Source: Trichodelitschia bisporula
Lineage: Eukaryota
DNA length: 64,000 nucleotides
Assembly (NCBI GenBank): GCA_010356995.1
Contig: ML996687.1
Span: 1,803-65,802, forward strand
Reading direction: 5' to 3'
A model generated the notes under the pieces. It was not told where the DNA came from. It did no database searches and saw only the letters and a program-made list of their open reading frames with translations. This document shows positions 6,561 through 51,359 of this stretch, one piece after another. The translations under genes and the position numbers were made by a program. The number at the start of each line of letters is the position of its first letter. Position 1 is the stretch's first letter.

Positions 6561-6762
6561 GTGTATGTAGACGCTTGATAAGCTCCGAATTAAGAACCCT
6601 GCCCCAGTCAGTGGCTTGCAGTAGTCTCCCGTGTTCCCCGCCGACCCCGGTCCGTCAGTACCCCTCCAGTCTCCGCGGGCTCCCCCCAGCCTTTGGCCAT
6701 CTCAGCGTCGCGCAGGATGCCCTCAGGGAGTACAATCCTTCGTTGCAGAGCATTATCCCAAT

Positions 6763-22621: not shown

Positions 22622-25600
22622 ATGACTGACCCCAAAGACATCGTTGAAGTGTCTAAAGACGTCGAGCTGTCGGCAGAGGAGAAAAAGTGGAAGGCAAGCC
22701 CGCCGCCCGTGATGCAACTGAACGCGTCTCTAACGTACTCAGAAATGGTACCGCACGCCCTTCGACTACATCCGCCTGCTCACCTCCGCCGACCCCAAAC
22801 CCTTCGACTATGGCCTTCTGCTCACTGGCCTCATCGCTGCTGCCGCCGCCGGCGTGCCCTTCCCTCTCGTCGCCATCCTCTTCGGTCAGGTGATTGACGA
22901 TCTCAATTCGTCGACATGCGACAACAGCGCCCACGCGCTCAGTGCGGCCGATGCGCACGCCTATCAGTCCGATGTTAACAGCAAGATCCTGCTCATCGTG
23001 TACCTCGCCATTGCGCAGTTCGCGTGCATCTACATCCACCTCACATGCTGGACACTGGCCGGCGCGCGTCTCGCGCAGCGTCTCCGCGAGCGCTACTTGC
23101 GGAGTCTCTTGAGGCAGGAAGTCTCGTTCTTCGACAGTATGCCTGCGGGAGAGGTCTCGTCGCGTCTTAATAGCGAGATTCAGAACATCCGCAATGGCAC
23201 CTCTGAGAAGGTCGGGCTGTGTATATCGGCCACCTCGTTTTTCATCACCGCCTATGTCGTTGCCTTCATCAAGGACACGATCCTGGCCGCGATTCTAATA
23301 TCGCTCGTACCGGCTTACTTCATCATGTCTTTTGTTGGCAGTCACTACATCGAGAAGTACTCCGCAGCCATGTCCGATCATCTCGCATCCGCGTCCGCGA
23401 TTGCCTCCGAAGCCCTCTCACACGTTCCGGTTGTGCACGCTTTCAGTGCGAATGCGCGGCTGGAGGTCAAGTTTGCGGCAGACCTCGTGCTTGCACGCAA
23501 GGAGGGCATTAAGAAGGCCGTCGCGACGGGCGTGCAGTGCGGCTTCATGTACTTCATCGCCTACGCCGCAAACGCCCTGGCCTTCTGGCAGGGCAGCAAA
23601 ACAATCGCGGATGCCGTGCGCGACGATTCAAACGCATCGGTGGGCAAGGTGTACACGGTGATTTTCGTCCTCGTAGATGGTCAGTCGCCCACCCTTACCT
23701 TCCGTACGCAGCTAACTCCCTAGCCACCCTCATGCTAAGCCAAGTCGCACCCTTCCTCCAAATCTTCGGCGTCGCCACAGGCGCTTTCCGCAAACTCCGC
23801 GAGGACATGCGGCACCAGTCCGCCTACGACGGAACATGTGAAGTGAAGGGCGAATTCCCGGATATCCAGGGCAACATCGAGTTCCGCGAGGTGTCCTTCG
23901 CGTACCCCTCGCGACCAGACCGGACCGTCCTGAAGGGCGTGTCCATCTCCTTCCCCTCCGCGAAGCACACCGCGCTCGTCGGTCTCTCCGGCAGCGGCAA
24001 GTCCACCATCGCGGGCCTTACGACCCGCCTTTACGACCCCAAATCTGGCACCATTACCATCGACGGCGTCGACGTGCGCGACATCAACGTGCGGCACCTG
24101 CGCAGCTTCATTAGCCTGGTGCAACAGGACCCGGCGTTCCTGGACCGGTCTATCCTCGAGAACATCGCGCTGGGCCTGATCAACAGCCCTGCGGCCGAGC
24201 ACGTGCCACTCAAGCCTGTGCTGCTCAGCCACGAGCTCGCCGCGTTTGTGGAGGATATCCGCCGGCACCGCACGAAGGACATCCTCGCTGTGGCGCAAGC
24301 CAGAGGCCCGGAGATCACGCGCATCGTCATGCTGGTCCAGGAAGCAGCCTCCCTCGCCGATGCAGCGTCTTTCATTGAGAACCTGCAATTCGGATACGCG
24401 ACTAGCATCGGCTCGAGCGGGAATTTGCTCAGTGGCGGGCAGAAGCAGCGCGTTGCGCTCGCGAGAGCTCTAGTGCGCGATCCACGGATTTTGATCCTGG
24501 ACGAGGCGACTGCGTCGCTGGATTCGCAATCTGAGCTACGGATCCAGGAGGCGCTGGAGAGGATTGCGGGTGGGAGAACACTGATTTCGATTGCGCATCG
24601 GATTTCGACGGTGAGGGGGGCGGATAATATTATTGTTATGCGCGATGGGGATGTGCTGGAGCAGGGGAGGCATGCGGAACTGATGGCGAGGAAGGGTGCT
24701 TATGCGGAGCTTGTGGCTTTGCAGGGGCTGGATAAGGCTGCGCCGAAGAATGGGGAGAAGGATGTTGAGAAGGCGCCCAAGGCTATTACGTCGAAGGAGA
24801 TGTCTACGGGCTCCAATCTCAGCGTCGACTTACCTTCAGAGTCGGACGAGAAAGCTGTCGAGGAGAGAGGCGAAGACGACGAAGAAGCACCAGGTGTATC
24901 ATCTGAACGCAGCCTTCTCTCAATATTCAAATCCATCGGTCCCCTCATCCGCCGCGACATCCTCGTCGTCCTCATCGCCCTACTAGGCGCCGTCGTCGTC
25001 GGCGGCGCCTTCTCCGCCGAATCCGTCATCTTCGGCAATACAGTCGGGCACCTCTCGCCCTGCAACAGCGAATCCAGCATCCGATCCGCCGGCAACTTCT
25101 TCGGGCTCATGTTCTTCGTCCTCGCCATCATCGAGTTCTTCGCCAACTTCGTCAGCTGGTCGGGTTTCGGGTTTGTGTCCGAGAAGCTGCTGTACACGGT
25201 GCGGGTTCTATCGTTCCGCGCGCTATTCGAGCAGGATCTGCAGTGGCATCAAAGTGAGGACCGCACGCCCTCGGGCCTGCTGTCTGTGATTACGAAGGAC
25301 GGGAACGCGCTCGGTGGGCTCAGCGGCTCAATAATCGGCACCATCCTCTCCATCCTAATCAACATGATCGTCGCCGTCGTGCTCACGCACATCGTCGCCT
25401 GGCGCATCGCCCTCGTGTGTCTCGCTACCGTCCCCCTCCTCCTCGGCACCGGCCTCATGGAACTCCGCATCCTCTCCGCCTTCGAAGAAAAGCACGAAAC
25501 CGCCTACTCCAAATCCGTCTCCATCGCCGTCGAAGCCGTAAACAGCATCAAAACCATCGCCGCCTTCAGTCTCGAGCACGAAACCCTCTCTTCCTACCGG

Positions 25601-26728
25601 CGCCAACTCGCGGGACCGAGGAAAGAAACGACCCTCGTAACCCTGCACGCCAGTTTCTGGCTTGCAATGACTTATTTCATGGGGAACCTGTCCTATGCGC
25701 TGGCGTTCTGGTGGGGCAGCAAGCAGATCATCGAAGGGCGGTACACGCAAACCCAATTTCTGATCGTGGTTATGAGTCTACTCGTCTCCGCCCAGCTGTG
25801 GAGTCAAATGTTCGCCCTCGCGCCCGAGCTCTCATCTGCCCGCGCCGCCGTGGCCCGCATCCTCAATCTCCTCGACCTCGGGCAGAGCCGCACGCTCCAT
25901 CCCCCGCCGGACCTGGGGGGGCGCGATATCGAGAAATCAGCCGAAGCGAAACCTCCACCTCGCGCGGCCGGTGCATCTGTCACCTTCCGCGACGTGGGCT
26001 TCGCGTACCCCGCCCGCCCCTCCGTCCCCGTGTTGCACGATCTCAACTTACACATCGCGCCGGGCCAATACGCTGCGCTGGTAGGCCCGAGCGGCGCAGG
26101 GAAGTCCACTGTCATATCGCTCATTGAGAGGTTATACACCCCCACCGCTGGGGTCGTCGAGATCGATGGGCGGGATATAGCGCGCCTCGGGGTCGGGTTT
26201 AGGGATGATCTGGCGTATGTGCCGCAGGATGCGGCGCTGTTTGATGGGAGTGTGCGATTCAATGTTGCCTTGGGCGCGAGGCCGGGGGTTGAACCGAGTG
26301 ATGCGGAGATTGACGAGGCATGTCGCGTGGCGAATGTGCATGATGTTATTGCGGGTTTGCCGGAGGGGTACGATACGCAGGTTGGTCCTAATGGGGGGCA
26401 GTTGAGTGGGGGGCAGAAACAGCGGCTTGCTATTGCGAGGGCGCTTGTGAGGAAGCCGAGACTGCTGATACTGGATGAGAGTACGAGTGCGTTGGATGCG
26501 GAGAGTGAGGGGTTACTGCAGGAGGGGTTGGAACGGGCGGTGCGGGGCGGAGGGATGACGGTTGTGGCTATTGCGCATAGGCTTAGGACGGTGAGGGCGG
26601 CGGATGTGATTTTTGTGGTTGAGGAGGGGAGGTGTGTGGATAGGGGGAGGCATGAGGAGCTGATGGAGAGGAGTGAGACGTATAGGGCGAATGCGGTTTT
26701 GCAGATGTTGGATGCGGGGGGCGTATAG
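22622..26728 (+). CDS. Full-length ABCB/MDR-type ABC transporter, putative siderophore exporter (SitT-like)
   Basis: TMD-NBD-TMD-NBD; Walker A GLSGSGKS and GPSGAGKS; LSGGQKQR twice; ILDEATA / ILDESTS; introns ~22694-22742 and ~23680-23722. Confidence 0.93.
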
Positions 26729-27128: not shown

Positions 27129-28445
27129 CTACAACTTCGCCGGCAACGGCACCCCCGTCCCCGCAATGAAACCCCCCTGCTGATTCAACGGACAAAGCTG
27201 AAAAAACCTCTCCCGCGTAACCCTCACCAACACCGCCCTCTTATGCGGGAAATCCACAAACTTCTCCACATTCAAGCCGTGGGTGTAGTCATACACAAGC
27301 ACGCCCGCGTTATGCGCCGCCGGCTCGCCCACCACCGCCCCCGTCCGCGCATCATCCAGGAAGCAGAAATGGATTATGCAGCTCCACCACCCGAGCACAC
27401 GGTGCCGGCCCCTGTACCGCGCATCGCCCACCAGGGAGTGCCGCCCGCGGTCCCAATCGCCTGCGGCGTAGTGTGCGCCCACGTGGTCTTCTTTCGTCCA
27501 GTATATCTCGAAGTAGCTGAACGCCACGTCATCGAAGCGGCCTAGCACAGGCAAGCTATGCGGATCATCGTGCTGCTTCTGTAGATATGCGCGGTGGGCT
27601 CCGAGACTACCGGCCTCGTTCCACCCGCGCGCCACGCGGGGATCGTTCTGCCACTTGTGGAACAGCGCGACGTGGGCCTCGTCGTTGACATCGAGAGCCT
27701 GGAGGCTGAAATGCGCGTCGAGCGAGGGGATGTAACGCGAATACACGATACTGCCCGGCGTTGGCTTCGCGGGGCGGGACGGGTGCAGCATGTGCACGCG
27801 GCTGCCCGGGAACCCGGTTGTTAGGACTTGGGAAGGGACTTCGATGGGTAAGCTCGGCCGGGTGGAGGGCGTCCATGCGGGGTGGGTGCCGAAGGGCGAG
27901 GCGGCGCCTTGCCAGAAGGCTGCCCGGTGGAGGATGAGTTCTGCGGTCGGGGTGGTGGGTTGCGGGGTGTCGATCGGGGTGGGGTGGGGGGTTGCGAGGG
28001 TGGAAACGATGAGCGAGCGTTTGAGGGCTTCGCTGTCGGTGCCGGTGAGCGTCGCGCGGATGATTTCAAGGTCCGGGTGGAGCTGAAGGAGGGCGTGGAC
28101 GATGAGCCAGATTTGCCCGAGGGAGGGGGCGGCGCCGCTCCAGGTCAGGGTTGTGGAGGGGGCGCGGAGGGCGCGAGCCCAGGGGGTGTTGTCTGAGGTT
28201 GGGGGGACGGAGGCATCGGATGGAGTTTGCGGTGCGGTGAAGGTGAGGGTGGTGTTGTGGAGGGGAGATGGGGGCTCGAGGGCGGAGGAGGAGGGGTCTG
28301 AGGAGCGGAGGACTTGGAGGCCGGTGGTGTTGGGGGCTTGCGTGGGTACGACGTAGTAGGTTGTGAGGTGTGGGTGGGGGAGGCGGAGTTTGGTGAGGGC
28401 GATGGGTTTGAGGGGGTCGGTTGATGTGGTGGTGGTGGTGGCCAT
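27129..28445 (-). CDS. sidF: N5-hydroxyornithine acyltransferase (anhydromevalonyl-CoA transacylase)
   Basis: AFWQGAASPFG, HPSRPAKP, YSRYIP, FHKWQNDPRVARGW, YFEIYW.KED, DRGRHSLVG, FLDD.RT..VVGEP, DFPHKRA; C-terminal PTS1 AKL; divergent from the NRPS. Confidence 0.92.
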   Translation of the reverse strand: MATTTTTSTDPLKPIALTKLRLPHPHLTTYYVVPTQAPNTTGLQVLRSSDPSSSALEPPSPLHNTTLTFTAPQTPSDASVPPTSDNTPWARALRAPSTTLTWSGAAPSLGQIWLIVHALLQLHPDLEIIRATLTGTDSEALKRSLIVSTLATPHPTPIDTPQPTTPTAELILHRAAFWQGAASPFGTHPAWTPSTRPSLPIEVPSQVLTTGFPGSRVHMLHPSRPAKPTPGSIVYSRYIPSLDAHFSLQALDVNDEAHVALFHKWQNDPRVARGWNEAGSLGAHRAYLQKQHDDPHSLPVLGRFDDVAFSYFEIYWTKEDHVGAHYAAGDWDRGRHSLVGDARYRGRHRVLGWWSCIIHFCFLDDARTGAVVGEPAAHNAGVLVYDYTHGLNVEKFVDFPHKRAVLVRVTRERFFQLCPLNQQGGFIAGTGVPLPAKL

Positions 28446-28805
28446 GATTGCGGTGCGGATGTGACGAGGTCAGAGAAGGACGACACAAGAAGAGTCGAAG
28501 GGCGGCACGTCAGGCAAAAGGCAAACGTCGGGACAAAAGAAAGCGATCAGCCAGCTTCAGAAAAGGATGACGGAATACGGGCCTACGTTCCCATCGTGAT
28601 ACCACCCTTCAACCGAACCGATATCGGCCGAGTGCCCGGCTGACTCGGAGTGCTGGCGGTCTGCCCAGCATGGCGGCGACCAGGCATAGCGAAGAATTTT
28701 CCACCATAATGAGCAGTAGAAAACGGCAAGGCGATTTACCGGGCCATGATGGTTTGTTTCCACTTGCAGGTCGTGATGGGCGACAAAGTGGAGACCGGGG
28801 GAAGG

Positions 28806-28889
28806 ATCTGATAAGCCGTGGGTGGAGTGATCAGCAAGCTCTGACATGGGAAAATGCGCGTGGCGCCATGGATTCGACGGATCTGATAA
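28806..28889 (+). promoter_or_regulatory. Two SreA-type boxes in the sidF/NRPS divergent promoter
   Basis: ATCTGATAA at 28806-28814 and 28881-28889. Confidence 0.85.
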
Positions 28890-29720
28890 CTCTAACTGGA
28901 CTGCAGACCATATTAGAGCGAAAAAAGCGTTGTGTTGGCGTGTCTGCAGGGTATCCATGTGGGGGGGTGAGTGGAGAGAAGGCCGGGCGACATGGACAAG
29001 ACGGAGCAATAAGGCGCGCGCGGCACGCGATGTCTAGCCTTGTTCCGATCCCGAAATAACGTTAAGGGGATTTCGCGTGCCGTTTGTGCGAGCCGTCGCG
29101 TGTCTCGGCACCTTGGCGGTCTCTTGTCGCGAAATTCGTCATCGTCAAGCTCTTCGACCTCTGCTTCACTGTCCACTCACTGTCCACTTTCATCAACTCC
29201 CAAACAACCCCACCTTGCTAGCTCGCGGCATCACCCGCCAGGGCTCCCTTGATTCAAAAACCGAAATATCCGCATCGTCCGCATCCGACGCTAGCTGGGG
29301 TGCGCCGGTCGTCTGCTGGTCGTTGTATTGTATTGCTCGTCTTTCACCGCCTTCGAACTGACGATGCCCCAGTCGCTGGCTCCACTGGCTCCACTGGCTC
29401 CATTCTCTGCCCCAGCGTCCAGATCACCGCTTCGCTCGACCATGGGTGTTTCACCGATGGACGGAGAGCATGGGATCGGACTGGAAACTGGAGTCTGGCG
29501 AGAGGTCGGGTCTTGGAGCATGAGGGTCCTAATGACGATGCCGTCGCGGTTCTGGCGCGAATTTCCCTCCATTGCTCGGATCTCATATTCTCCATATCAA
29601 CGTTCACGCGTAGCTTTCGTGCAGGCATTGTCTTTTCCCTTGTGTTGAGCATGAATCTATGATCTCCCGTGCATCATCCCACACCCTTAATCCCTACGAT
29701 CTACGTCAGGCCTCACTGCG

Positions 29721-32700
29721 ATGGGCATCTTGACAGCGGCGGAGCCGGAGGGGCAGCGTGAGGTTGGGGGACCCGTCAAGAAGAGGGATTCCTTTGGCCT
29801 GCCCGCCAACAGTTCTGGCGGTTCACAACATGCCAACGCCGAAGTCCAGCAGGGAGATCTCGGGTTTTTGCCATTCAAGCTGCGTCCGCTCGCTGGAGAA
29901 CTGAAGGAGCGGCAGGAAGATATCCTGCTGCTGGCATGGCTTCTTGTCCTCTCCCGGTACAGCGTTGATGGCGATGCCGACTTGAGCTGGGGACACTCCG
30001 AGCTGGACGATGATGGCGAGTGTGAGCATAACGTCTCTTCAACTTTATCCACAGCCGATGTCCGGTTGGACAAGGGAGCGTCAGCCTTGTCGCTGCTGGA
30101 ACACGTCAAGGCTGAGTCGTCCCATGGCGATGATATCTTCTTTTTCAGCGACACGGCATCAGACTTGTCAGACGGGAATGATAAGAATACCGAAGCCAGT
30201 GTAAGCCGCCCGCCAGAGTACTTGTCCAGTCTGACCTCGCAGTGGAAAGTGCAGTTAGATGTCATGCTCTGCGGAGCATACATCTGGGTCCGGTCGTCAT
30301 GGAACCGGACGACCAAGCACATGGCCCTGAACCATGTCCACTCCTTCGTACATATCGTCAACTCTATTCGCTCCAACCCCAGCGCAATACTCTCAGACAT
30401 CCTCCAAATCAACCCTTGGGAGCGGGCCCAGCTTTGGCACTGGAACCGTGAGCTGCCGCCGAACATCGATGTTTGCACCCACGACCTCATCTCCGATCGA
30501 GCGCGGAAGCAGCCCAAAGATGAAGCCGTATACTCATGGGACGGAAGTTTGACCTACGAAGAGGTTGAGGCGTATTCAACTTTTTTGGCAAATCAGCTTG
30601 TGGCGCAAGGCGTTGGCGTCGGCACCATCGTTCCTCTCTGCTTCGAGAAGTCCCGATGGACTGTCGTCGCTGTCCTCGCCGTCATGAAGGCCGGCGGCAC
30701 ATTCGTACTCATGGATCCCAGTCAGCCGCTAGCTCGGCTGCACACAATTGCTGAGGAGGTGCGCGCCACACTCATCATCACCTCACAGAAGCAGTTTGAA
30801 CTCGGCGCGGACGTCGTTCCGGGTGGCAAGGCGATCTCCATCGGACAAGACAACTTCCAGTTCGATCCAAGCACGCAGGTCTTCCCCAAGCTGCCGCCAG
30901 TACCGCCTTCTGCCATTCTTTACATCATCTTCACATCAGGTAGCACCGGCAAACCCAAGGGCGTCATCATCTCCCACGAGACGTACACCAGCGGTGTAAT
31001 TCCGCGCGCCGATATGGTGGGCTACAACGTGGACTCGCGCGTCCTGGACTTTGCGTCATACGCATTCGATGTATCCATCGACAGCATGCTCTGCACGCTC
31101 ATGCAGGGAGGATGTCTCTGCATTCCGTCAAACGAAGACCGCGTCAACGACCTCAACGGCGTGATCCGGCGCATGGGCGTCACTATGGCCAACATGACCC
31201 CGTCCGTGGCGCGCGTCCTTGATGCCGACATCATCCCGTCGCTGAGCAGTCTAGGCCTGGGTGGCGAGTCGGTGTCACCACGCGACGTCGCTGCATGGGG
31301 CAAGCACACGCGGATCGTCATCGGGTACGGCCCCTCGGAGTGTACCGTCGGCTGCACGATCAACAGCAGCGCGGCCAAGGGCCGCGACTACGTCGACATC
31401 GGTCAAGCCACCGGTGCAGTACTCTGGCTCGTCGATCCAGACGATTACAACCGCCTAACGCCATTGGGAGGTGTGGGCGAGCTCCTTGTCGAGGGACCTG
31501 TTGTTGGTCAGGGATATCTGCATGATCCCGCCAAGACGGCCACTTCATTTATCGAAGACCCGACGTGGCTTCTCGAAGGCGACGGTTCGGGCAACGGGCG
31601 CCATGGGCGCATGTACATGACCGGAGACTTGGTGCGGTACGACCCGGACGGCTCAGGTGCGTTGGTCTTCGTTGGCCGCAAGGACACGCAGGTGAAGCTG
31701 CGGGGTCAGCGCGTGGAACTCGGCGAGGTGGAGCATCACCTGCGGACGCTGCTTCCGTCCGGCGTCACGGTTACGGCGGAGGTTGTTGCCCCCAAAGGCC
31801 ACAAGGGCGAGCCGATTCTGGTGGCTTTCCTTGCAGAGGATGCGGAAAGGGACAGCACCGATGGACCGAAGCCGGCACTGGCGCCGACGACGGTATCTGC
31901 TCGCCTCGAGGCAGCGCTTGCGACTATGGATAAGGATCTGGCGCAGGTCCTTCCGGTGTACATGGTCCCATCGGCATATATTCCCGTAAATTTCATGCCG
32001 ATTCTCGTCTCTGGAAAGACGGACCGCAAGAGCCTTCGAGAGCTGGCCGCGTTAGGTAGGCTACAACAGCTTGCCCAGAATACTTCCGATGGCGATAAGA
32101 ACGGACCGGAGACGACTATGGAGAAACGCCTGCAGCAGATCTGGAGTGCCGCCCTCAGCATCTCAGCCGATGCCATTACTTCTGGTGACAATTTCTTCAA
32201 CATTGGGGGCGACTCCCTGACGGCCATGAAGCTGGTGGCTACGGCGCGCGAGGCGGGCATTCTGTTGACTGTGGCTGACATCTTCCGCAACCCCAAGCTC
32301 TCGGAGATGGCATCTATTGCAGTCGCCGAGGACGCCGCCGATGTTGAAGTGCTTCCATTTTCTGTGCTAGCTGATGGATGGAGGATGGAGGATGCATGCG
32401 CTGAAGCTGCCGCTGCATGCGGTGTTGACCCAGCTGCAATTGAAGACATCTACCCGTGCACACCGCTGCAGGAAACTCTCATGGCCTTCTCGGTCAAATC
32501 CACCGACGTCTACATAGCCCAGCGGGTTATCGAGCTGCCCGATCTGGAGCGCACCGAAAAGCTCAAAGCTGCATGGGAGGCCGCCACCACCGAAAGCCCT
32601 GTTCTCCGCACTCGCATCGCCCAGTTCCCAGACCGCGGACTCATGCAAGTCATCGTCAAGGAGAGCATCACCTGGCAAACGGGCTCCAATCTCGAAGAAT

Positions 32701-35700
32701 ATCTCGCCCGCGACCGCAGCACGCGCGTGGATCTCGGCGACGCTCTTTCACGGTACGCCATCATTTGGCAAGGGGACAAAGGGTACTTTGTGTGGACTGT
32801 CCACCATGCCCTTTACGACGGGTGGTCCACTCCACTGGTGCTAGACCGTGTGAAGCGGGCGTACGAAGGGCTCTCCACCTCGCGCCCTGCCCAGATGAAG
32901 CACTTCGTTCAATGGCTGAGCCATCCCGACCGTGAGTCCTCGAAGGATTTCTGGCGTCTCCAGCTCCAGAATGCGACCGGGCCGCAGTTTCCGAGTCTCC
33001 CATCCCGTACATACCTGACCAAAGCGGACGCCCTTTTGCAGAGATATATACCGCTCAAACGCCACGGTAACGTAACGACCACACCGGCCACATTAATCCG
33101 TGCCGCCTGGGCGCTCGTGGCATCGCAACTCACCGGATCCGACGATGTCATCTTTGGCGAGACCTTTACCGGGCGCAGCGTGCCGGTCAAAGGCGCGGAC
33201 CAGATTGAAGGCCCAATGATTACGACGGTTCCAGTCCGCATCACCATCGACCGTGCCGCTCAAATTCCAGAGTTTCTGCAGCGCATCCACGATCAATCCA
33301 TTGCACGCATCCAGCACGAGCATGTGGGGTTGCAGAATATCCGCCGCGTCAGCACCGACGCGCAAATTGCCTGCGAGGTCAAGACGGGTCTCGTCATTCA
33401 GCCCTTCGAGGCGGTGAGCGAGGGCGAGGAGTTGCTTCCCGGGTTCAAGATCCTCGGTGAAGCGGATCCAGCGCGCGAGGCGCTTGAGTTCAATTCCTAC
33501 GCGCTCATGCTAGTCTGCGCGCTGCGTTCCGATGGCTTTCAGTTGTACGCCAGCTTTGACTCCAACGTCATTGAGGTGGCGCAGACGGAGCGCGTTCTGT
33601 CCCAGTTTGAGTGCGCATTTGAGCAGCTGGCTAAGGGCGAGGCAATCTCTGTCGGCGATGTGAGCTGCCTCAGTGAGCAAGATGTTGTCGACATTTGGCG
33701 CTGGAACGGGCCGCCCCCGGCTCGCATCGATGCTGGCGGTCTCGTCACAGGCAGTGGCGAACCTGGGTTCCCTAGGATCACCGTCCCATGGGTAGTGCAC
33801 TCTCGACATCCCGAGCGTCTGGCGCCAATCGGTGCGGTAGGAGAGCTGCTCATCGAAGGCCCGCTTGCTTCCAAGGATTTCATTGAGGATCCGGCATGGC
33901 TTGTGGCTGGCTACAAGCATGTCTCCGGGCGGCATGGCAAGTTGCATAGGACGGGTGACTTGGTTCGGTACCGTGCTGATGGCTTGCTGTCGTTTGTTGG
34001 CCGCAAGGACACGCAGGTCACGCTTCAGGGGCAGGCAATGGATCTCACTGAGGTTGAGCATCAACTTCGCAAGCACCTCCCTGCTGGGACCGAGGTTGCG
34101 GCTGATCTCGTCACTCCTCTGACGGAGGGCCAGCCGGAGCCTGTACTAGTCGCCTATATTGGTACCAACTCCACCGACGGCCTGGTGAACATTGGTCTGC
34201 AAGGCGATTCTGATGTCATATCTCCGACTCTCCCTTCGGCCTTGCAGGAAGCGCTTCTGGTCATCAACCGCGCACTCATCGAAGTTCTCCCGCCACACAT
34301 GGTTCCCTCGGTGTACATCCCCCTTCGCCACTTCCCGCCGACCGACAAAGCAGGCCGCCAGCAGTTTACCGCCATAGGGTCTTCCTTGACTCAAGAATGC
34401 ATCCAAAACCTCAAGGCCGCCTTTGCCCGCCTCCGGAGCGCCCATTCGCAGAACAAGCTCGCCCCGCGCACCGACAAGGAACGCGCACTCCAGCAGCTCT
34501 GGAGCCAAGTTCTGGACATGGACCCAGCGGCCATTACTACCGAGGATAGCTTCTTCCGTCTCGGCGGTGACTCCATCATGGCTATGAAGCTGGTGTCCGC
34601 GGCGCGGCATGCGGGATATGTCCTCTCGGTGGCGGATGTGTTCCGACACATGCGCTTGGGCAATATGGCGACGGTGCTTGCGGATGGGAAGGAGATTGCC
34701 GTGTCACAGGTGGTCAAGCCGTTCACTTCACTGGGAGGTATAGACGTGCAGGATTTCCTTGTCCAGATCAAGTCCGCGTTGGCGGATCCCGACTCAAAAA
34801 TCAAGGACGTCCTGCCCCTCACTGGCCCGCAGGAAATGGATATCAAGGCCACCGTGGATGCGCCGCGCAGTTCATTCCAGTATAATATTCTCTACCTGGA
34901 TCCGGCCGTGGATCTGGGGCGCTTGCTGCACGGTTGCCAGTCCCTTGTCGCTCACCACGACATCCTGCGGACAGTTTTTATCAACACCAGCGACAAATAT
35001 CTGCAAGTGGTCTTGGAGCACCTCGACGTTCCGGTGGAGAACTTCACTACAGACAGCGACCTGGCCAAGTTCACCAACGAAATCTGCGCCGCTGACATCG
35101 AAAAGCCTTGTCCGCTGGGCTCCACCTTCCTCAAGTTCTTCTTCATCCGCAGTGTTTCCAAGAACGCCTTCGTCTTCCGCATTTCCCATGCGCAATATGA
35201 CGGTGTCTCCCTCGCTGAGCTGATGCGCCAATTCAACCTCGCCTACCACAACGAGAAACTCCCCTCCACACCACCCTTCGCGTCATACATCAACCACATG
35301 ATTACCGCCCGGCCCGCAGCCACGGAGTACTGGCGCATCCGCCTCGCAGGCGCAGCACTCACGCGCCTCCCCCCGCTGACACCGGAGAAATCCACCAAAC
35401 CTGTCTTCCTCACTCGCGACATCGACGTCTCAGCCAAGCCCGCAAACATAACGCTAGCAACAATGCTCAGCGCAGCCTGGGCCCTCGTCCTCTCCCGCAC
35501 GCTATCCAAGCGCGATATCGTCTTCGGCAGCGTCGCCTCAGGCCGCTCCATCGACCTACCAGACGTAGGCTCCATCGTTGGCCCCTGCTACCAATTCACG
35601 CCCGTGCGGACAACCTTCGCAGATGGCTGGACGAGCACCGATCTACTCCGCGCAGTGCAGGCGCAGTATGCAGAGGCGTTGCCGCATGAGCATCTAGGCA

Positions 35701-36014
35701 TGCCGGATATTGTCCGCTGCTGCACGGATTGGGACGCGGGGGCGTGGTTTGACTCGCTTGTGCACCACCAGGATGTGGCGTATTTCGACGACATGCCGTT
35801 TGGTGAGGGGAAGGCGGGCGTGGATGCGCTGCTGCCGCATGCCGAGAGCGTAGATGTGTGGCGCGTGGTGAGTTTCCCGCGGGGGGGGGGTGTGCTGAGA
35901 CTGGGGATTGAGACGAGTGAGTCGTGGGGGGTGTTTGCTGGGGAGTTGCTGGGCGGGTTGGAGGAGGCGGTTAGGGGGTTTGTGGAGCGGCCGGAGGAGG
36001 TTTTGGTGCGTTGA
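29721..36014 (+). CDS. sidD: Extracellular siderophore NRPS, A-T-C-dA-T-C (SidD/NPS6 family)
   Basis: A domain FTSGSTGKPKG, YGPSE, GELLVEGP, TGDL, QVKLRGQRVELGEVE; T FFNIGGDSL; C HHALYDGW; truncated A; T FFRLGGDSI; terminal C SHAQYDG. Probable in-frame 42-nt intron 30201-30242. Confidence 0.93.
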   Translation: MGILTAAEPEGQREVGGPVKKRDSFGLPANSSGGSQHANAEVQQGDLGFLPFKLRPLAGELKERQEDILLLAWLLVLSRYSVDGDADLSWGHSELDDDGECEHNVSSTLSTADVRLDKGASALSLLEHVKAESSHGDDIFFFSDTASDLSDGNDKNTEASVSRPPEYLSSLTSQWKVQLDVMLCGAYIWVRSSWNRTTKHMALNHVHSFVHIVNSIRSNPSAILSDILQINPWERAQLWHWNRELPPNIDVCTHDLISDRARKQPKDEAVYSWDGSLTYEEVEAYSTFLANQLVAQGVGVGTIVPLCFEKSRWTVVAVLAVMKAGGTFVLMDPSQPLARLHTIAEEVRATLIITSQKQFELGADVVPGGKAISIGQDNFQFDPSTQVFPKLPPVPPSAILYIIFTSGSTGKPKGVIISHETYTSGVIPRADMVGYNVDSRVLDFASYAFDVSIDSMLCTLMQGGCLCIPSNEDRVNDLNGVIRRMGVTMANMTPSVARVLDADIIPSLSSLGLGGESVSPRDVAAWGKHTRIVIGYGPSECTVGCTINSSAAKGRDYVDIGQATGAVLWLVDPDDYNRLTPLGGVGELLVEGPVVGQGYLHDPAKTATSFIEDPTWLLEGDGSGNGRHGRMYMTGDLVRYDPDGSGALVFVGRKDTQVKLRGQRVELGEVEHHLRTLLPSGVTVTAEVVAPKGHKGEPILVAFLAEDAERDSTDGPKPALAPTTVSARLEAALATMDKDLAQVLPVYMVPSAYIPVNFMPILVSGKTDRKSLRELAALGRLQQLAQNTSDGDKNGPETTMEKRLQQIWSAALSISADAITSGDNFFNIGGDSLTAMKLVATAREAGILLTVADIFRNPKLSEMASIAVAEDAADVEVLPFSVLADGWRMEDACAEAAAACGVDPAAIEDIYPCTPLQETLMAFSVKSTDVYIAQRVIELPDLERTEKLKAAWEAATTESPVLRTRIAQFPDRGLMQVIVKESITWQTGSNLEEYLARDRSTRVDLGDALSRYAIIWQGDKGYFVWTVHHALYDGWSTPLVLDRVKRAYEGLSTSRPAQMKHFVQWLSHPDRESSKDFWRLQLQNATGPQFPSLPSRTYLTKADALLQRYIPLKRHGNVTTTPATLIRAAWALVASQLTGSDDVIFGETFTGRSVPVKGADQIEGPMITTVPVRITIDRAAQIPEFLQRIHDQSIARIQHEHVGLQNIRRVSTDAQIACEVKTGLVIQPFEAVSEGEELLPGFKILGEADPAREALEFNSYALMLVCALRSDGFQLYASFDSNVIEVAQTERVLSQFECAFEQLAKGEAISVGDVSCLSEQDVVDIWRWNGPPPARIDAGGLVTGSGEPGFPRITVPWVVHSRHPERLAPIGAVGELLIEGPLASKDFIEDPAWLVAGYKHVSGRHGKLHRTGDLVRYRADGLLSFVGRKDTQVTLQGQAMDLTEVEHQLRKHLPAGTEVAADLVTPLTEGQPEPVLVAYIGTNSTDGLVNIGLQGDSDVISPTLPSALQEALLVINRALIEVLPPHMVPSVYIPLRHFPPTDKAGRQQFTAIGSSLTQECIQNLKAAFARLRSAHSQNKLAPRTDKERALQQLWSQVLDMDPAAITTEDSFFRLGGDSIMAMKLVSAARHAGYVLSVADVFRHMRLGNMATVLADGKEIAVSQVVKPFTSLGGIDVQDFLVQIKSALADPDSKIKDVLPLTGPQEMDIKATVDAPRSSFQYNILYLDPAVDLGRLLHGCQSLVAHHDILRTVFINTSDKYLQVVLEHLDVPVENFTTDSDLAKFTNEICAADIEKPCPLGSTFLKFFFIRSVSKNAFVFRISHAQYDGVSLAELMRQFNLAYHNEKLPSTPPFASYINHMITARPAATEYWRIRLAGAALTRLPPLTPEKSTKPVFLTRDIDVSAKPANITLATMLSAAWALVLSRTLSKRDIVFGSVASGRSIDLPDVGSIVGPCYQFTPVRTTFADGWTSTDLLRAVQAQYAEALPHEHLGMPDIVRCCTDWDAGAWFDSLVHHQDVAYFDDMPFGEGKAGVDALLPHAESVDVWRVVSFPRGGGVLRLGIETSESWGVFAGELLGGLEEAVRGFVERPEEVLVR

Positions 36015-36552
36015 TCACGGCGAGGATGCAGCTGATGAGTGATGTCTTTTTTTGGGTATGGAGTACGGGTTTCGCTTAATTCTCAGTACCTTGTCAAGTT
36101 CACGTTTCTCTTATTGTGCAATGCTGAACCTGGCTTCATGGTGCTCGCGTGCTCGCTTCTGCCTCGCATTGTGCGCATATTTCATGCAACGGGCAGTCTT
36201 ATGATCGCCATAATGCACTCGTCAGGCGAGCCCTGGGTATGATCTCCCTATGCCTGCCCCTTCCACATGCCGTCCGTCTCAAGAACCGCGCCAGCTGTAC
36301 TTTCAACGGTCAAGCGACCAACAGTTTCGCAGTCAGGCCGCCAGCACCTGCAAAATTCTCCGTAATGCCACCCAAGCGCCAGCGACGGCAGAATATCGCC
36401 GGCAGAAAATCCTACACTGTATATCTTACCCGGTGGTACCCGACCTTGCCATGACATGCATGGAGGCAAGGCTTGCTAACTGGCACCCGACACGAGGCTG
36501 GGATTTGCTCCAAGCGTCTCCACAAGGCTAGCACTAGGCGGGGGATCCTCGG

Positions 36553-36581
36553 ATCAGATAAATTTTTGGCGCATCTGATAA
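36553..36581 (+). promoter_or_regulatory. Two SreA-type boxes upstream of the SidA-like gene
   Basis: ATCAGATAA 36553-36561 and ATCTGATAA 36573-36581. Confidence 0.85.
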
Positions 36582-36959
36582 CCTAATTTTGACCGCTGGT
36601 TGCAGCTGTGTGGCCCGAGATCGGCCGGGGGCGCTAGCCGTGTGGGCCGAGACAGCCTTGTCGAATGTTTCTTTACGATTTCTGCCGGTGATGGACGGAT
36701 CCACTTGGGGCTTGCTGGAGGAGATACTACGTAATGCACTTTGAGAAGTTTGTCGGCTGAGGTGGCGGACGCTGGTGCAGAGTTGGGTGGAGCTGATGGC
36801 TGGCCGTGGTGGCCCTCGTTTCCTTTCGTCCCAGGCTGGCTGCGGACTTGGTGGTAGATGCTTCAGCTTCACTGATATTGCATAGATGCATTGATGCCGC
36901 CGCCCTAGAGCCACAAAGCTCGATTCCACCTCACATCTCCATCCTCTCTCACCGTCACC

Positions 36960-38343
36960 ATGTCGCCCCCTCAATCCCCCTCACCAGACAATGTCATCCA
37001 CGACATCCTCTTCATCGGCCTCGGCCCCTCAACCCTCTCCCTAGCAATCGCCCTCTCCGAACAATCCCCCCCCCCCAAAACCGTCATCCTCGAGCGCTCC
37101 CCACGCTTCGTCTGGTCCCCCTCCACCCTCCCTACCCCCCGCGCCCCAATGCGCACCTCCCTCCTCCACGACCTCACAACCCCTCGAAACCCACACTCGC
37201 AGTACACATTTCTGAACTACCTCGTCGCCACCGACTCCCTCGTCGCATACACCAATCTCGGCGCCATTAACCCGCCCCGCGCCCTCTTCGCCCGGTATCT
37301 GGCCTGGGTGGCTAAGGCCTTCGAGGAGCGCGAGTGGGTGCGGTATGGCGCTGATGCGCGCGCCGTTGAGCCGGTTAAGGTCGGCGGCGCGGTCGACCAC
37401 TGGCGCGTGAGGCTGGCGGACGGCGCCCCGGTGTTGACGAGGAAAGTCGTCGTGGCCGTCGGCGCCGCGCCGCAAATGCCAGCCTCGTTGTCGGGACTGC
37501 AGTCCTCGCGCGTGCTACACACCTCAGCGTACGGCGCCGCGCTCCCGCGCATTCTAGCGCAAAACGGGCGCGTGGACGTCGCGATCGTCGGCGGCGGGGA
37601 GGAAGCGCTCGAGGTGTACAACCACCTGCGCGGGATGGGTGTCGAGGGGCGGGTGGTTCTGTTTCACGCGGAGAAGGTGTTGAGGGGGGAGGATGCGAAT
37701 CCCTAGTAAGTCTTTTGCTTTAGAGTTGGAGCGAAGCTGACGTCCAGTGTGCGGAATCTCGTTGCGGCGGATGACCCGGTCGTGCCGTATGAGTTGCGGA
37801 ACGCGGGCGCGACGGCGGGCGGAGAGATGGCGTCCGCGCATACGATTACGGCGCTGTATGAGGATCACTACGCGCAGCATATTTCTGCGGCGAATCCGGC
37901 GACGCACGATTTCCAAATCCGGGCTTCGCGGAGGGTGATGCGCGCCGAGGTCGCCGGCGAGCAAGTCCGTCTTCACCTCGCGGACCCAGCGACGGGTCTG
38001 CGCGAAGCGGCGTGCTTCGACTTCGTCATTGTGGCGGGTGGGTATGAGCGTGGACAGCACGGGCGACTGGTTGCGCCGCTGGGGGAGATGTTGGATGGGC
38101 GGAGTGGGGATGTGGCGCTTGATGCTGAGTATAGGGTTTGTTTGAAGAGGGGGAGTGCGAGGAGGGGCGTGGGCGTTTGGGTGCTTGGGGGGTTTGANNN
38201 NNNNNNNNNNNNNNNNNNNNNNNNNNNNNNNNNNNNNNNNNNNNNNNNNNNNNNNNNNNNNNNNNNNGGAGGGGGTGGGGGGGAGGGAGAGGGTGGTTGT
38301 GCCGGAGGCGTGGGGGGGGGAGAGGGAGAGGGCGGCGTTGTAG
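36960..38343 (+). CDS. Divergent L-ornithine N5-monooxygenase (SidA)-like flavoprotein
   Basis: HDILFIGLGPSTLSLAIAL, DLTTPRNPHSQYTFLNYL, TNLG..P.R..F..YL.WVA, VLHTS.Y, AIVGGG, DFVIVAGGY. Intron 37706-37747 removes the apparent TAG. Spans an N gap; likely ends RAAL* at 38343. Confidence 0.85.
38198..38267. other. Assembly gap (70 N) within the G-rich 3' part of the SidA-like gene
   Basis: Run of N. Confidence 1.
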
Positions 38344-38474
38344 GCGTGTTGATTGTTGGGGCGTTGAGTTGCTTTGGGTAGAGGCGTACGGAGGTTATGT
38401 CCCTTAACCTTTGTGGAAAGATTGTATGAGGAAGGACGGAAGACTTCTGTTGCCAAAATATACATAAGTTTGAT

Positions 38475-38710
38475 CGTCACCGAGGACTTGTCACCCGTTA
38501 TCGAGACTATGTTTCCCGTCATCGAGGCCGTGTTACCCGTAATTGTTCGGCCTCAGTAACGGGTTACTCAGTCTCAGTGACGGGTAACTGGGACCTGGAA
38601 GGGTAGCCAGTCCCCAGTGACGGGTAACTGAGCCGCGACAGGTAACTTGTATTAGTGACGGGTAACTGAGCCACGATGGGTAACTAGGCCCGATGACGGG
38701 TAACTGAACT
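38475..38710. repeat. Array of ~20-nt repeats (core GACGGGTAACT), ~8 forward and ~3 inverted copies
   Basis: Forward copies near 38555, 38576, 38616, 38636, 38654, 38674, 38692; inverted-like copies GTCACCCGTTATCGAG, TTTCCCGTCATCGAG and GTTACCCGT at ~38490-38541. Confidence 0.85.
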
Positions 38711-38870
38711 TGTCTTTGGATCTTGGGGAGAGGACCATTGAACGGAAAGTGGTTAAAAGGCTTTACAACCAAGGAAGTAATAAAGTTGGCTTCAAAATAC
38801 CGTCATCTAGTGCTCTCATATTGTCGCCAGCTCCAACGCCATACCCAAAAATCTACCAAACAAGCAAACC

Positions 38871-40647
38871 TCACAACCTCGCACTCTTCCCCCCCGCCAA
38901 AATCCTCTCCGCCACATCCCTAAGCACAAACTTCTGAATCTTCCCACTCCCCGTCAGCGGCACCTGCGCCGGCACCCCCAGCTCGCCAAACCAAAACACA
39001 TGCTCCGGACACTTATGCCGTCCCAGCGTCTGCCCACACCACTCCCTCACCTCCTTAAAACTCATCTTCCTTTCCCCAGGTGCACATACCAAAAACGCAG
39101 CCACAACCTCCACGAGACGCGCATGCTTCACACCCACCACAACCGCCCGCTCAATCGCCGGATGCCGCACCAGCCGCTCCTCGATCTCGAGCGGGTATAT
39201 ATTCTCCCCGCCTCGGATAATAAGCTCCTTGAACCGGCCCGTGATACTTGCGTACCCCTCCGCGTCAAACACAGCCTCGTCGCCGGTGTGCAGCCATAGC
39301 ACCCCATCGTCATCCCGACTCATGTTCTCTGCGGTCTTGGCCGCGTTGCGCCAGTACCCCGCGTGCAACTGGTAGCCCGCGATGCACAGCTCGCCGCGCG
39401 TGCCGATGGGCACTATATTCCCCTCCCGGTCCACAATCTTAGCGTGCGCGTGCGGCAGTAGCGTGCCCACGGTGTGCAGTTTCCGCTCAACGGTGTCGGT
39501 CACGTGCGCGTTGAAACAAGTCGGCGAGGCTTCGGTCAAGCCGTACGAGGACGTGAACTCCGTCATGCCAAACTCGGCGACCATTTGCTCCATCAGGTGG
39601 CGCGGGACGGGACTACCGGCAATGATTCCCGTGCGCAGATGCTTGAGATCCAGCCCGGTTCGGGGAGTGGAGAAGAGGGCGTCGAACATGGCGGGGACGC
39701 CGTGGAGCACGGTGCAGCGCTCGGTGTGGATGGCGCGCAACGTGGCGGGCGCGTCAAAGACTTCGGCTGGGTAGACGGTGGTGGCGGCGTGGGTGGTTGC
39801 GGCGAGCAGGCCGAGGACGAGGCCGAAGCAGTGGAAGAGGGGCGGGGGGCAGCAAAGCACGTCGTTCGAGGTTAGCCGCATGCGGTTGCCAATGAAGCGC
39901 GCGTTGTTGACGACGTTGTGGTGCGTCAGGCTGCTGGCTTTGGGGATGCCGGTTGAGCCACTGGTGAAGAGGAGCATGGCGATTGCATACGCCTGTTGGG
40001 AGGTGTGCAGCTCGGTGAGCTGGTCATCGAGGGGTAGGGAGGCGCCTAGGGCCACAGCTTCGGCGTAGGTGCGGAAGTCCTGCGCTTCGCCGTAGAGGAT
40101 GACGATTTCATCGAGCCAGGGCGTGCACTGCGGGTCTTCGTGGAGGCGGGCGAGCAGCGGGCGGTTGTCGAGGCGGCCGATGTTGAGGGTGGTGAAGAGG
40201 ATGCGGCAATCTGTGATATCAGCTTATGACAAGATCTACGTCGACGAACGCACCGGTGTGCCGTAAGGCGTGGATCGCCTCGGGGGCTGTGTATGTGTTG
40301 TTGAGCACCACGAGGATGGCGCCAATGCGGCCGGCTGCAAAGACCAGCGCGACGTACTGCTCGCAGTTGCCGGCGAAGACGCCGATGCGGTCACCGGGCC
40401 GGATGCCGACGTCGAGAAGCATCTTGGCGAGCGCGATGCTCTGCGCGCGGAGGTGGTTGTATGTCCATCGAGCTCCCGTCCACGGGATGACGACGCACTC
40501 CTTATCGCCGTATTTACGGCATTGCAGGTCGAGAAGGCCGGCGGTGGTGAGAGTAATGAGAGGGGGATACGATGGGCCGTGTAGGACGGAGAGCTGGGTG
40601 GAGGGAGTGGGCTTCTGGGCTGGCGGTATGGAGCCTGCGGCGGACAT
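38871..40647 (-). CDS. sidI: Acyl-CoA ligase, mevalonyl-CoA ligase SidI-like
   Basis: VLNNTYT, FTSGSTGIPKA, PPPLFHCFGLVLG, SSYGLTEASP, GELCIAGY, WLHTGD, IIRGGENIYPLEIE, TGSGKIQK; one intron ~40211-40252; C-terminal ARL; cluster context. Confidence 0.88.
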
Positions 40648-41020
40648 TTTGGAGATGGATATGCGGCGAGACCTGGGGGACAAGCGACGATGCCTCAAAG
40701 ATGCTGAGGATGTATCGGAAGACATGAATACTACACGGACATCAAGGTACGATGAACCACACATCCCGCATGGTCGACCATACGGGGCGGTTTAATGGCT
40801 CGATCCATGCCGTCACAGTAGCCCGCCTCGGGCCCGACAGCGGTGGAGCCAGACAGATCGCTCCAGTTTAGGGCGCTCTTTCAGGGCTTTACTTTCCCTC
40901 CGCCATTTCCGGCCATCTGACGATTCACAGTTCACGCAGCCGGGGGTGGGCGAGGTCGTGGACTGGGAAAAAAAAGTCGACCTCATATCCCAGCCGTTTC
41001 AGGACTAGCGCGGATGGGGT

Positions 41021-50533: not shown

Positions 50534-50831
50534 GTGCCGTTGCGTGGCCTTTTCCCCATTCCCAGTGGGGGCATGAACGTGAGCATGAGTCGAGCAGGAT
50601 GAGGCGTATGGCATCCTTGTTGTGCATGCTTTTCTCACTTGCCGGTCTTGCGGGTATGCAACTCGTCACGTGGAGTCAGCGTCGGATTGATTGACCCCCG
50701 CCTCGATCCACGACTAGTTCCCGCCTTTAGTATGAGCTCAGTCCGGCCTTCCCTCTTGGCCTCTCTCTCGAGCCACTCTTGACATCACTTCACTCTTCAA
50801 TATCGCCCTATCAAACTCCGCACTGCACGAC

Positions 50832-51293
50832 ATGTGCTACTCCTGCGACGAAAATGCCGCCAGCGACCTGCCCCCCCGCGAGTCCATCTTCGTGTCACCA
50901 CACTGGCGCGTATGCCACAGCTTCAACTCATCGCTGCCCGGCTGGCTAGTAATCGTCGCGCAGAAGCACGTCCTGTCGCTGGACGAGATGCCAGACGAGG
51001 CGCTCATGGAACTCGGCCTGCTGCAAGGAAAACTGACCCGCGCGCTGCGCGAAGTCGTCGGCAGCCTCAAAGCGTACTCCGTCTTTTTCGCCGAGGGGCG
51101 CGGCTTCGAACACGTCCACATCCACATCGTCCCCCGCATGCCGGATCAACCACCGGACCGTAAGGGCCGGCGCGTGTTTGAGTACCTCCCCCCGCCCGCT
51201 GTTGAAGCCGTCCCTGTTGAGGAAATGGATCGCATTTCGCGAGACATCGCGTCACGTGTGCGGCTGAACGACCCCCGAACCGAAAAGTCTTGA
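50832..51293 (+). CDS. HIT (histidine triad) family nucleotide hydrolase, intronless
   Basis: N-terminal CYSC, PGWLVIV..KH, HVHIHIVPR triad. Confidence 0.9.
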   Translation: MCYSCDENAASDLPPRESIFVSPHWRVCHSFNSSLPGWLVIVAQKHVLSLDEMPDEALMELGLLQGKLTRALREVVGSLKAYSVFFAEGRGFEHVHIHIVPRMPDQPPDRKGRRVFEYLPPPAVEAVPVEEMDRISRDIASRVRLNDPRTEKS

Positions 51294-51359
51294 GTGATCG
51301 CAGGCGGGGAGGGGGCGAGTACGTTTGGTTTCCAATGTAACCATCTGATAACGCACTCA

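Follow-up and report, generated by a model that had tools for sequence, protein, structure and literature searches.

A Second SidA-Like Gene in the Siderophore Cluster of Trichodelitschia bisporula Belongs to a Widespread Fungal Clade and Lacks Ornithine and NADPH Contacts of SidA

Introduction

All fungal hydroxamate siderophores are taken to share one committed step, that of the L-ornithine N5-monooxygenase SidA, which has also been studied as an antifungal target. Here we describe a SidA-like gene from Trichodelitschia bisporula, a Dothideomycete of the order Phaeotrichales. The gene was found on a 64,000-nt stretch of DNA, the whole of which we call the window (positions are counted from its first letter), as a two-exon PF13434 gene on the + strand at 36960–38343, within the region 36553–38343. 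Its product, the window protein, is compared below with SidA itself, with a canonical SidA from the same species, and with SidA-like proteins of other fungi.

The catalytic residues of Aspergillus fumigatus SidA are well described. According to the parts of PMC7347517 that were consulted, K107A abolishes hydroxylation, whilst N293A, N323A and S469A strongly weaken ornithine binding. The same source states that S257 binds the pyrophosphate of reduced nicotinamide adenine dinucleotide phosphate (NADPH) and that Asn323 contacts its nicotinamide ribose. It also reports that R279A loses coenzyme preference and R279E prefers NADH, both variants being strongly uncoupled.

A second sidA gene within a sidD cluster has been described in Cladophialophora carrionii and Cladophialophora bantiana; the C. 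carrionii copy was named sidA2, and Cladophialophora sidA2 was taken for an ornithine monooxygenase (PMC10382037, of which parts were consulted). In the supplementary table of that paper the E-values against A. fumigatus SidA are 5e-174 for C. carrionii SidA1 and 5e-55 for SidA2. The latter value fits the SidA2 clade described below, of which we infer C. carrionii SidA2 to be a member. The literature searched, as far as its accessible parts go, makes no mention of a sidD-cluster sidA copy without catalytic residues or with a divergent active site. Whilst sidD clusters with a second sidA have been published before, a dismantled active site on a retained fold appears to be new in the literature searched.

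Results

Alignment of the Window Protein With SidA

Both exons of the gene matched PF13434 (lysine/ornithine N-monooxygenase) above its curated Pfam cut-off of 21.3 (exon 1, 1.2e-47, 163 bits; exon 2, 1.9e-06, 27.7 bits), placing the product in this family. Residues were paired by HMMER alignment to the A. fumigatus SidA chains 4b63 and 4nzh, and by MAFFT alignment with 27 canonical sequences (16 fungal and 11 treated as bacterial) in which A. lentulus SidA (P0254, 501 aa) served as proxy for the numbering. The pairings in exon 1 were unambiguous in the HMMER alignment. They showed that WHSGM of SidA reads WSPST in the window protein (H91S, M94T), that MQISFIKD reads MRTSLLHD (Q102R, K107H), that GSGQSA reads GGGEEA (Q256E, S257E, with the glycines of the loop kept), and that LIMRD reads LFHAE (R279A). 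Across the splice PFVNEI is replaced by PYVRNL (N293R). ATGY becomes AGGY. The ATNY motif is lost: in the MAFFT alignment T322-N323-Y324 pairs with A-G-G, an exact pairing that is uncertain in a stretch where no Asn is available.

The original prediction had read these changes by eye, and both alignments confirmed WSPST, MRTSLLHD, GGGEEA, FHAE, PYVRNL and AGGY. Its reading of ATNY as ATAG stands as regards the loss of N323, and is ambiguous as regards the residue now found there (Ala by eye, Gly in MAFFT).

The three ornithine contacts that can be read, K107, N293 and N323, are occupied by His, Arg and Gly (or Ala), a set other than that of a competent ornithine hydroxylase. The fourth, S469, falls inside an assembly gap, and this position is not conserved in 15 full-length relatives. 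In place of the NADPH loop G-x-G-Q-S-A-x-E with a basic residue at 279, the window protein has GGGEEALE with Ala279. Among the motifs that are near-invariant in the 27 canonical sequences, W-H-x-G-M, M-Q-x-S-F-x-K-D and T-N-Y are none of them kept in the window protein; for E-x-T-H-G, also near-invariant, the THG region falls inside the gap. On these alignments the residues that bind ornithine in SidA (K107, N293, N323) are lost in the window protein. Those that position NADP(H) (Q102, Q256, S257, T322-N323-Y324) and that select NADPH (R279) likewise align with other residues.

The binding signature for flavin adenine dinucleotide (FAD) is present, with GLGPST, an acidic residue at the end of beta-2 (LER) and FDFVIVAGGY. 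The GLGP that the original prediction had taken for the FAD motif does align with GFGP of SidA.

Structure prediction is in agreement with a retained fold. The model of the full-length relative P0006 (predicted local distance difference test, pLDDT, 83.5; predicted template modelling score 0.81) superposes on SidA 4b65 with a template modelling (TM) score of 0.83 and a root mean square deviation of 3.6 Å, and is of low confidence only near the segment that formerly ran from N293 to the Tyr loop and at the tail. The truncated window protein gave a model with pLDDT 71.6 (below 50 at residues 55–68 and 239–281), whose top Foldseek match was SidA (TM 0.65). The three-domain SidA fold is thus predicted to be kept in the window protein and its relatives.

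A Monophyletic and Fast-Evolving SidA2 Clade

With exon 1 as query, an exhaustive HMMER search through 1.84 billion cluster representatives gave 1087 matches at E ≤ 0.001, the best of which, after the protein itself, were only 39–44% identical. Word-indexed homology searches, with exon 1 or the public gene model P0002 as query, recovered nothing beyond the protein itself or a single unrelated reductase. The 144 matches that reached 200 aa or more were aligned, with the window protein added. Both H91 and S257 were present in 84 of these, and the other canonical motifs with them. About 32 members, counting the window protein, were without H91, Q102, K107, S257, N293, TNY and THGLSD. As H91 and S257 were the sorting criteria their counts are circular, and it is Q256, K107, Q102 and G255 that are independent of the sorting.

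Across the 32 members position 102 is Arg in 16, and position 107 is Gln in 13 and Arg in 7. Position 257 is Glu in 21. The second glycine of the NADPH loop (position 255) is Asp in 11 and Asn in 9, so that one or the other stands there in 20/32 members, with Gly in 7. Q256 is invariant in the canonical matches (84/84). The FAD motifs, and G253, A258 and E260 of the second Rossmann loop, are kept in 29–32 of the 32, and one subgroup of the clade retains GxGQxAAE.

A maximum-likelihood tree of 43 rows placed all 16 of its non-canonical rows on one branch (Shimodaira–Hasegawa-like approximate likelihood ratio test 100; stem 1.08), nested in fungal SidA once a yeast-lineage SidA has split off. 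The clade has end branches of 0.75–1.95 vs 0.23–0.77 in canonical SidA, and for the same species pairs the canonical copies are 54–63% identical and the non-canonical copies 33–40%. The rows nearest to the window protein are those of Tothia, Rhizodiscina and Venturia; its own branch is long (1.59) and its composition odd, making its exact place less sure.

Near-invariance across the 27 canonical sequences is seen at 63 positions. The clade keeps, from the FAD site and core, D41, G46, G48, E83, W90, D108, P115, S117, N136, P142, R144, Y150, W153 and H228, as well as G253, E260, Y340, D399, G406, Y436 and R474. It loses H91, M94, Q102, R130, E146, S257, P298, T322, N323, Y324, E458, H461, G462 and S469, with Q256 additionally lost in the subgroup of the window protein. 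Within-group identity shows its largest relative fall in the NADPH domain, at 28% vs 53%. New residues common to the whole clade were found at only three positions (I54L, I103T and F186W), suggesting that the old pocket has not been replaced by a new pocket that the clade shares. The subgroup of the window protein has R102, Q107 and Gxx[ND][ED]A in common, and 27 columns are invariant across 13 of its sequences including the window protein.

Fourteen members carry species names, and all 14 bear automatic L-ornithine N5-monooxygenase names. Eleven are Dothideomycetes (Trichodelitschia, Venturia, Tothia, Rhizodiscina, Microthyrium, Aureobasidium, Neodothiora, Lecanosticta, Lophium, Pseudovirgaria and Elsinoe) and three are Chaetothyriomycetidae (Exophiala, Lithohypha and Phaeomoniella); lineages were checked for four of the 14.

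The window gene is the T. bisporula member of this conserved, fast-evolving and monophyletic SidA2 clade of at least 32 cluster representatives. That the clade is old and widespread, and that a second copy is known in black yeasts as sidA2, had been overlooked in the original prediction, and the finding is less singular than it first seemed, the window gene being one of a widespread family.

A Canonical SidA in the Same Species

The original prediction had expected a canonical sidA elsewhere in the genome, and one was found. With the canonical Dothideomycete SidA P0061 as query, P0247 (EJ06DRAFT_532177; 508 aa, E 2.9e-140) was recovered among the best 120 of 2418 matches at E ≤ 1e-60. It is encoded on an 829-kb contig, separate from the 2.04-Mb contig of the window protein, with which it shares 34% identity. 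All the canonical motifs are present (WHAGM, MQISFIKD, GSGQSAAE, LLIKSD, PFVNEIF, KATNYG, VATGY and ETHGLSDSLLS), and in the tree it groups with the SidA of Venturia and Verruconis. Among the matches listed for the two kinds of copy, at least five species besides T. bisporula had both: Rhizodiscina, Aureobasidium melanogenum, Lophium, Pseudovirgaria and Phaeomoniella.

Gene Model and Transcription

Exon 1 (36960–37705) starts with the ATG at 36960 and comprises 248 full codons and 2 nt. It encodes the FAD motif GLGPST and the stretches MRTSLLHD, GGGEEALE and FHAE. A 42-nt phase-2 intron (37706–37747, + strand, GTAAGT...CAG) interrupts the codon of the residue equivalent to SidA F291, the Tyr of PYVRNL. 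Exon 2 runs from 37748 to 38197, where its last residues are ...GVGVWVLGGF, and is then broken by an assembly gap of 70 N (38198–38267) that covers the equivalent of the THGLSDSLLS region of SidA, including S469. It resumes at 38268 with a G-rich end (38268–38343, + strand) that reads ...EGVGGRERVVVPEAWGGERERAAL before the TAG at 38341–38343, giving a C-terminus of ...EAWGGERERAAL.

Four public sequencing runs of the same organism were compared over 36400–38900, two of DNA (X1, X2) and two that we guessed to be of RNA (X3, X4). The sample and study of X3 differ from those of the assembly's likely source. A 1030-nt X3 contig spans 37047–37705 and 37748–38118, omitting exactly the predicted 42 nt (GT..AG), and the DNA contigs retain them. 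This argues that the X3 contig derives from cDNA, and that the splice creating PYVRNL is real. Contigs of cDNA type span 36914–37705, and the RNA-like contigs gave no cover at 36652–36903 and 38119–38311. A 45-nt joint in X4 (depth 13) was minor and was discounted as noise.

In DNA contigs of X1 and X2 the N gap is filled by 66 letters instead of 70; these runs may themselves be the source of the assembly, and the content of the gap is known by length only. With the 2 bases of exon 2 before it and the 1 after it, this comes to 69 nt, or 23 codons, so that the frame continues past the gap to give a protein of about 445 aa. By hand count the tail after GGF has 47 residues, as in the closest full-length relative, P0006. 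GC content at codon positions 1/2/3 (0.70/0.50/0.78) is similar to that of the neighboring sidD, sidI and sidF frames. Judged by its frame and length the gene in T. bisporula is intact, and it is both transcribed and spliced, in agreement with the earlier claim of an intact spliced frame outside the gap. By its length (66 nt) the gap leaves the frame unbroken. The public gene model P0002 (348 aa) ends ahead of the gap with ...FVIVAG followed by FV, without about 100 C-terminal residues. Of 149 matches, 15 stop as truncated gene calls at the exon boundary marked by the 42-nt intron.

A run of 11 C at 37066–37076 in exon 1 codes for ...SPPPPK..., and at this run DNA and RNA-like Logan contigs break or have loose poly-C ends. 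The frame would shift if its length were wrong; one 15.8-kb DNA contig crosses it without difference.

Iron Boxes and Gene Neighborhood

Two SreA-type extended GATA boxes lie upstream of the gene in the same orientation (+ strand), ATCAGATAA at 36553–36561, about 400 nt from the ATG, and ATCTGATAA at 36573–36581, 20 nt past the first. Both match ATCWGATAA exactly, as the original prediction had said; the definition of this extended motif is quoted in PMC10382037 (consulted in part). The window as a whole has six such sites vs 0.38 expected, a number reached by 0/100 shuffles, and five of the six fall in promoter gaps of the siderophore cluster. The three other cluster sites are a ATCAGATAA box at 21584, between the genes of two transporters of the major facilitator superfamily (MFS) and ATP-binding cassette (ABC) type, and ATCTGATAA boxes at 28806 and 28881, in the promoter shared by a SidF-like gene and the gene for a non-ribosomal peptide synthetase (NRPS). 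The sixth, ATCTGATAA at 51343–51351, is outside the cluster, just within a HET-domain frame (51294–53429) and just past a HIT-domain frame (50736–51293). The bare HGATAR core was not enriched in the window (85 found vs 97 expected), so the signal is specific to the extended SreA-type motif, and the gene has the promoter sites that mark members of the SreA regulon. A bacterial promoter and terminator scan, of no relevance to fungal DNA, gave no matches.

The original prediction had also placed the gene inside a siderophore cluster, and its neighbors are indeed a SidD-type NRPS on one side and a SidI-like ligase on the other. The SidD/NPS6-type NRPS frame (29691–36014, +) is directly upstream on the same strand, with Pfam domains AMP-binding, two PP-binding and two Condensation; the SIDD_N profile scored 26.1 bits on it, slightly below its cut-off of 27. 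The SidI-like acyl-CoA ligase (38871–40791, −; AMP-binding, AMP-binding_C) is convergent with the SidA-like gene. Divergent from the NRPS is a SidF-like GNAT transacylase (27129–28469, −; Acetyltransf_8, 7.7e-46), beyond which lie the ABC transporter (22734–26728, +; ABC_membrane, ABC_tran), the MFS transporter (19666–21413, −; MFS_1) and, adjoining the latter, a multi-exon amino-acid permease (17780–19512; AA_permease_2 on four consecutive frames). The resulting order is amino-acid permease, MFS (−), ABC (+), SidF-like (−), SidD-type NRPS (+), SidA-like gene (+) and SidI-like ligase (−). The permease could be part of the cluster, for instance in precursor transport, or unrelated. The open frames that were scanned in the window included no enoyl-CoA hydratase (sidH).

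We scanned metagenome contigs for similar loci and obtained 31. Twenty-eight were read as bacterial N-hydroxylases and set aside (57–72% GC, with L029 at 35%, and without a match to exon 2); their readable motifs were canonical-type or otherwise unlike those of the fungal clade. As L001 is identical to part of L002, there are two independent fungal contexts, L002 and L020. L002, from a 64-kb contig, has the order sidH-like, sidD (+), sidA2-like (+), sidI (−) and ABC (−), the sidH-like enoyl-CoA hydratase (L002:282–890; ECH_1 1.9e-36) being upstream of sidD. Its sidA2-like gene has the motifs WKPCHS, MKTSFLND and GDGTSAAE and a phase-2 intron at the same position as in the window gene, and reverse-oriented ATCWGATAA sites lie upstream of both sidD and the sidA2-like gene. 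On L020 the sidA2-like copy (L020:20–1096; MRSSLLCD, GGNQHAAE) is convergent with a sidI sharing 74% identity with that of the window. It is uninterrupted where the window gene and L002 have the intron, which looks like an intron loss in the L020 lineage. The window ligase is 63–74% identical to the ligases adjoining the sidA2-like genes of L002 and L020, and the window ABC transporter 59–62% identical to the ABC gene of L002. The SidA2 clade is a fungal sidA duplicate that sits in the SidD (NPS6/fusarinine-coprogen) cluster, a location read here for the window, L002 and L020, and for Cladophialophora by the authors of PMC10382037, in the parts of it consulted.

Two further features of the window were noted. 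The 3′ intergenic space between the SidA-like gene and the convergent sidI-like gene holds an array of GACGGGTAAC-like motifs (38474–38706), with 9 of the window's 11 matches (at most 1 mismatch; 2.77 expected window-wide) at a spacing of about 38 nt, the left copies inverted with respect to the right. About 12 kb upstream of the cluster, at 5045–8100, are two frames, one of an amino-acid permease and one of a cytochrome P450.

Discussion

On each point that could be checked here, the original prediction held. Our alignments and comparisons within the clade suggest, tentatively, that the cluster copy is an iron-repressed, FAD-binding, non-catalytic accessory (a pseudoenzyme) of the extracellular-siderophore branch, and that it probably does not hydroxylate ornithine. 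We favor a non-catalytic accessory because the pocket varies freely in the clade, and because in most members Asp or Asn and Glu occur where the pyrophosphate of NADPH should sit. Canonical SidA would then supply the N5-hydroxyornithine, and the cluster copy, no longer hydroxylating ornithine itself, would act as an FAD-binding accessory of the SidD branch under iron repression. Possibly it could associate with the SidA tetramer, or with SidD or SidF, routing hydroxyornithine into the extracellular branch. For the clade as a whole we would propose, with still less confidence, that SidA2 proteins are conserved SidA-derived pseudoenzymes or NADPH-independent flavoproteins, and a functionally required but unrecognized component of the SidD/NPS6 extracellular-siderophore pathway of Dothideomycetes and black yeasts. 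They might, for instance, be prozyme-like partners, tuning or channelling catalytic SidA.

Several points weigh against a non-catalytic accessory. Loss of activity is an extrapolation from point mutants of A. fumigatus SidA, and the alignment near N323 is uncertain. The model of the window protein is moderate (pLDDT 71.6), its weak residues 55–68 and 239–281 mapping, through the HMMER alignment, to the remodelled loops. With only the length of the 66 gap letters known, a stop codon or the residue at the S469 position may hide there. The window protein keeps a formally intact G-x-G-x-x-A (GGGEEA) and E260, and could bind NAD(P)H, perhaps NADH; the subgroup with GxGQxAAE suits a redox enzyme better than an inert protein; and retention in a biosynthetic cluster with strong cDNA cover is what would be expected of an enzyme.

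The strongest alternative is that of a redox-active flavoenzyme with a new function, which would use FAD and a nicotinamide cofactor, probably NADH (R279 being Ala, followed by an acidic residue), on a substrate other than free L-ornithine. That substrate might be another amine of the pathway, or the protein might be a flavin or ferric-siderophore reductase serving iron release. The location in the cluster and the iron boxes would suit such an enzyme, as would the retention of the FAD motifs, G253, A258 and E260 in 29–32 of 32 members, GGGEEA in the window protein and GxGQxAAE in one subgroup, and the recurrence of R102 and Q107 in the window protein's subgroup. In SidA, moreover, R279A and R279E lose the preference for NADPH or prefer NADH (PMC7347517, consulted in part). 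Yet the T322-N323-Y324 loop is lost, and it is Asn323 that contacts the nicotinamide ribose of NADPH in SidA according to the same partly consulted source (PMC7347517). We consider this alternative somewhat unlikely, in that no residue of the substrate pocket is conserved clade-wide, with only three clade-wide new residues, and in that both Asp/Asn at the second glycine (20/32) and Glu at S257 (21/32) should repel the pyrophosphate. Moreover, every known step of fusarinine or coprogen synthesis already has an enzyme; we know of none without one.

Continued activity as an L-ornithine N5-hydroxylase, reserved for the SidD branch and with another mode of binding substrate and cofactor, would be the simplest reason for a SidA-like gene to be kept in an iron-controlled hydroxamate cluster. 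It is how such genes are annotated and described (PMC10382037, in the parts consulted), and in principle R102 could take over from K107 in pairing with the carboxylate. We nevertheless regard it as improbable. Of the ornithine contacts, the three that are readable have changed and relatives do not conserve the fourth, the contact positions vary freely in the clade, and K107A alone abolishes hydroxylation in SidA (PMC7347517, consulted in part). The clade also evolves much faster than canonical SidA (33–40% vs 54–63% identity for the same species pairs), and a canonical SidA coexists with it in 5/5 same-species pairs seen, as well as in T. bisporula.

We hold it very improbable that the gene in T. 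bisporula is a relic without function, in decay but so far spared a stop codon: the end branch of 1.59 and odd composition, the departures from the subgroup consensus (SPST instead of RG.., H instead of Q107, L instead of F47), the truncated public gene model and the 66 nt known by length only would agree with it, but the open frame of about 445 codons is correctly spliced in cDNA, its codon-position GC matches that of neighboring genes, 13 sequences of the subgroup, the window protein among them, share 27 invariant columns, the tail length equals that of P0006, and the clade has been retained in two fungal classes.

We also considered whether the clade is tied to the cis vs trans anhydromevalonyl chemistry of fusarinines vs coprogens. 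The idea was dropped, as Aureobasidium makes fusarinines yet has the clade, and as 0/14 named members are Sordariomycetes, some of which make coprogens.

Genome surveys count every PF13434 match as an L-ornithine N5-monooxygenase. If the cluster copy makes no hydroxyornithine, such annotations, and the idea of a redundant sidA, would be mistaken for black yeasts and for many Dothideomycetes, among which are crop pathogens. The SidD pathway would then have an extra, unexplained component, and the clade would offer a natural experiment on which residues of SidA can go while the fold and the FAD site stay. Were SidA2 proteins pseudoenzymes or NADPH-independent flavoproteins with a required part in that pathway, the "two sidA orthologues" of these fungi would be a misreading.

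Comparison With Known Systems

Among solved structures, A. fumigatus SidA (PDB 4b63) is the best match of the window protein (1e-34 by sequence), and the two share PF13434, the FAD motif GxGxxG, E83, W90, D108, G253, E260, D399 and G406. The C-terminus of the window protein, ...ERAAL, resembles the tail of SidA (by the A. lentulus proxy P0254), and gene calls truncated at the same exon boundary occur among canonical SidA homologues too. Unlike SidA, with about 32% identity to A. lentulus P0254, it has H91S, M94T, Q102R, K107H, Q256E, S257E, R279A and N293R, and the T322-N323-Y324 loop is replaced; the THGLSDSLLS region, inside the gap in the window, is absent in its relatives. The same-genome paralogue P0247 belongs to the same family, but retains every canonical motif, sits on another contig and is 34% identical. 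The bacterial enzymes PvdA and KtzI have the same fold and family as the window protein. The 84 matches with H91 and S257, both bacterial and fungal (an alignment in which PvdA and KtzI themselves do not stand), also keep QS, K/R107, TNY and THG, and the window protein does not.

The closest described counterparts are C. carrionii sidA2 (CLCR_02414) and the C. bantiana copy. Chaetothyriales are represented in the non-canonical clade by Exophiala and Lithohypha. Like the window gene, the Cladophialophora copies lie inside a sidD-sidF-sidI(-sidH) cluster that also holds an ABC transporter and a siderophore transporter, and C. carrionii sidA2, like the window gene, is far more remote from A. fumigatus SidA than sidA1 is (PMC10382037, in the parts consulted).

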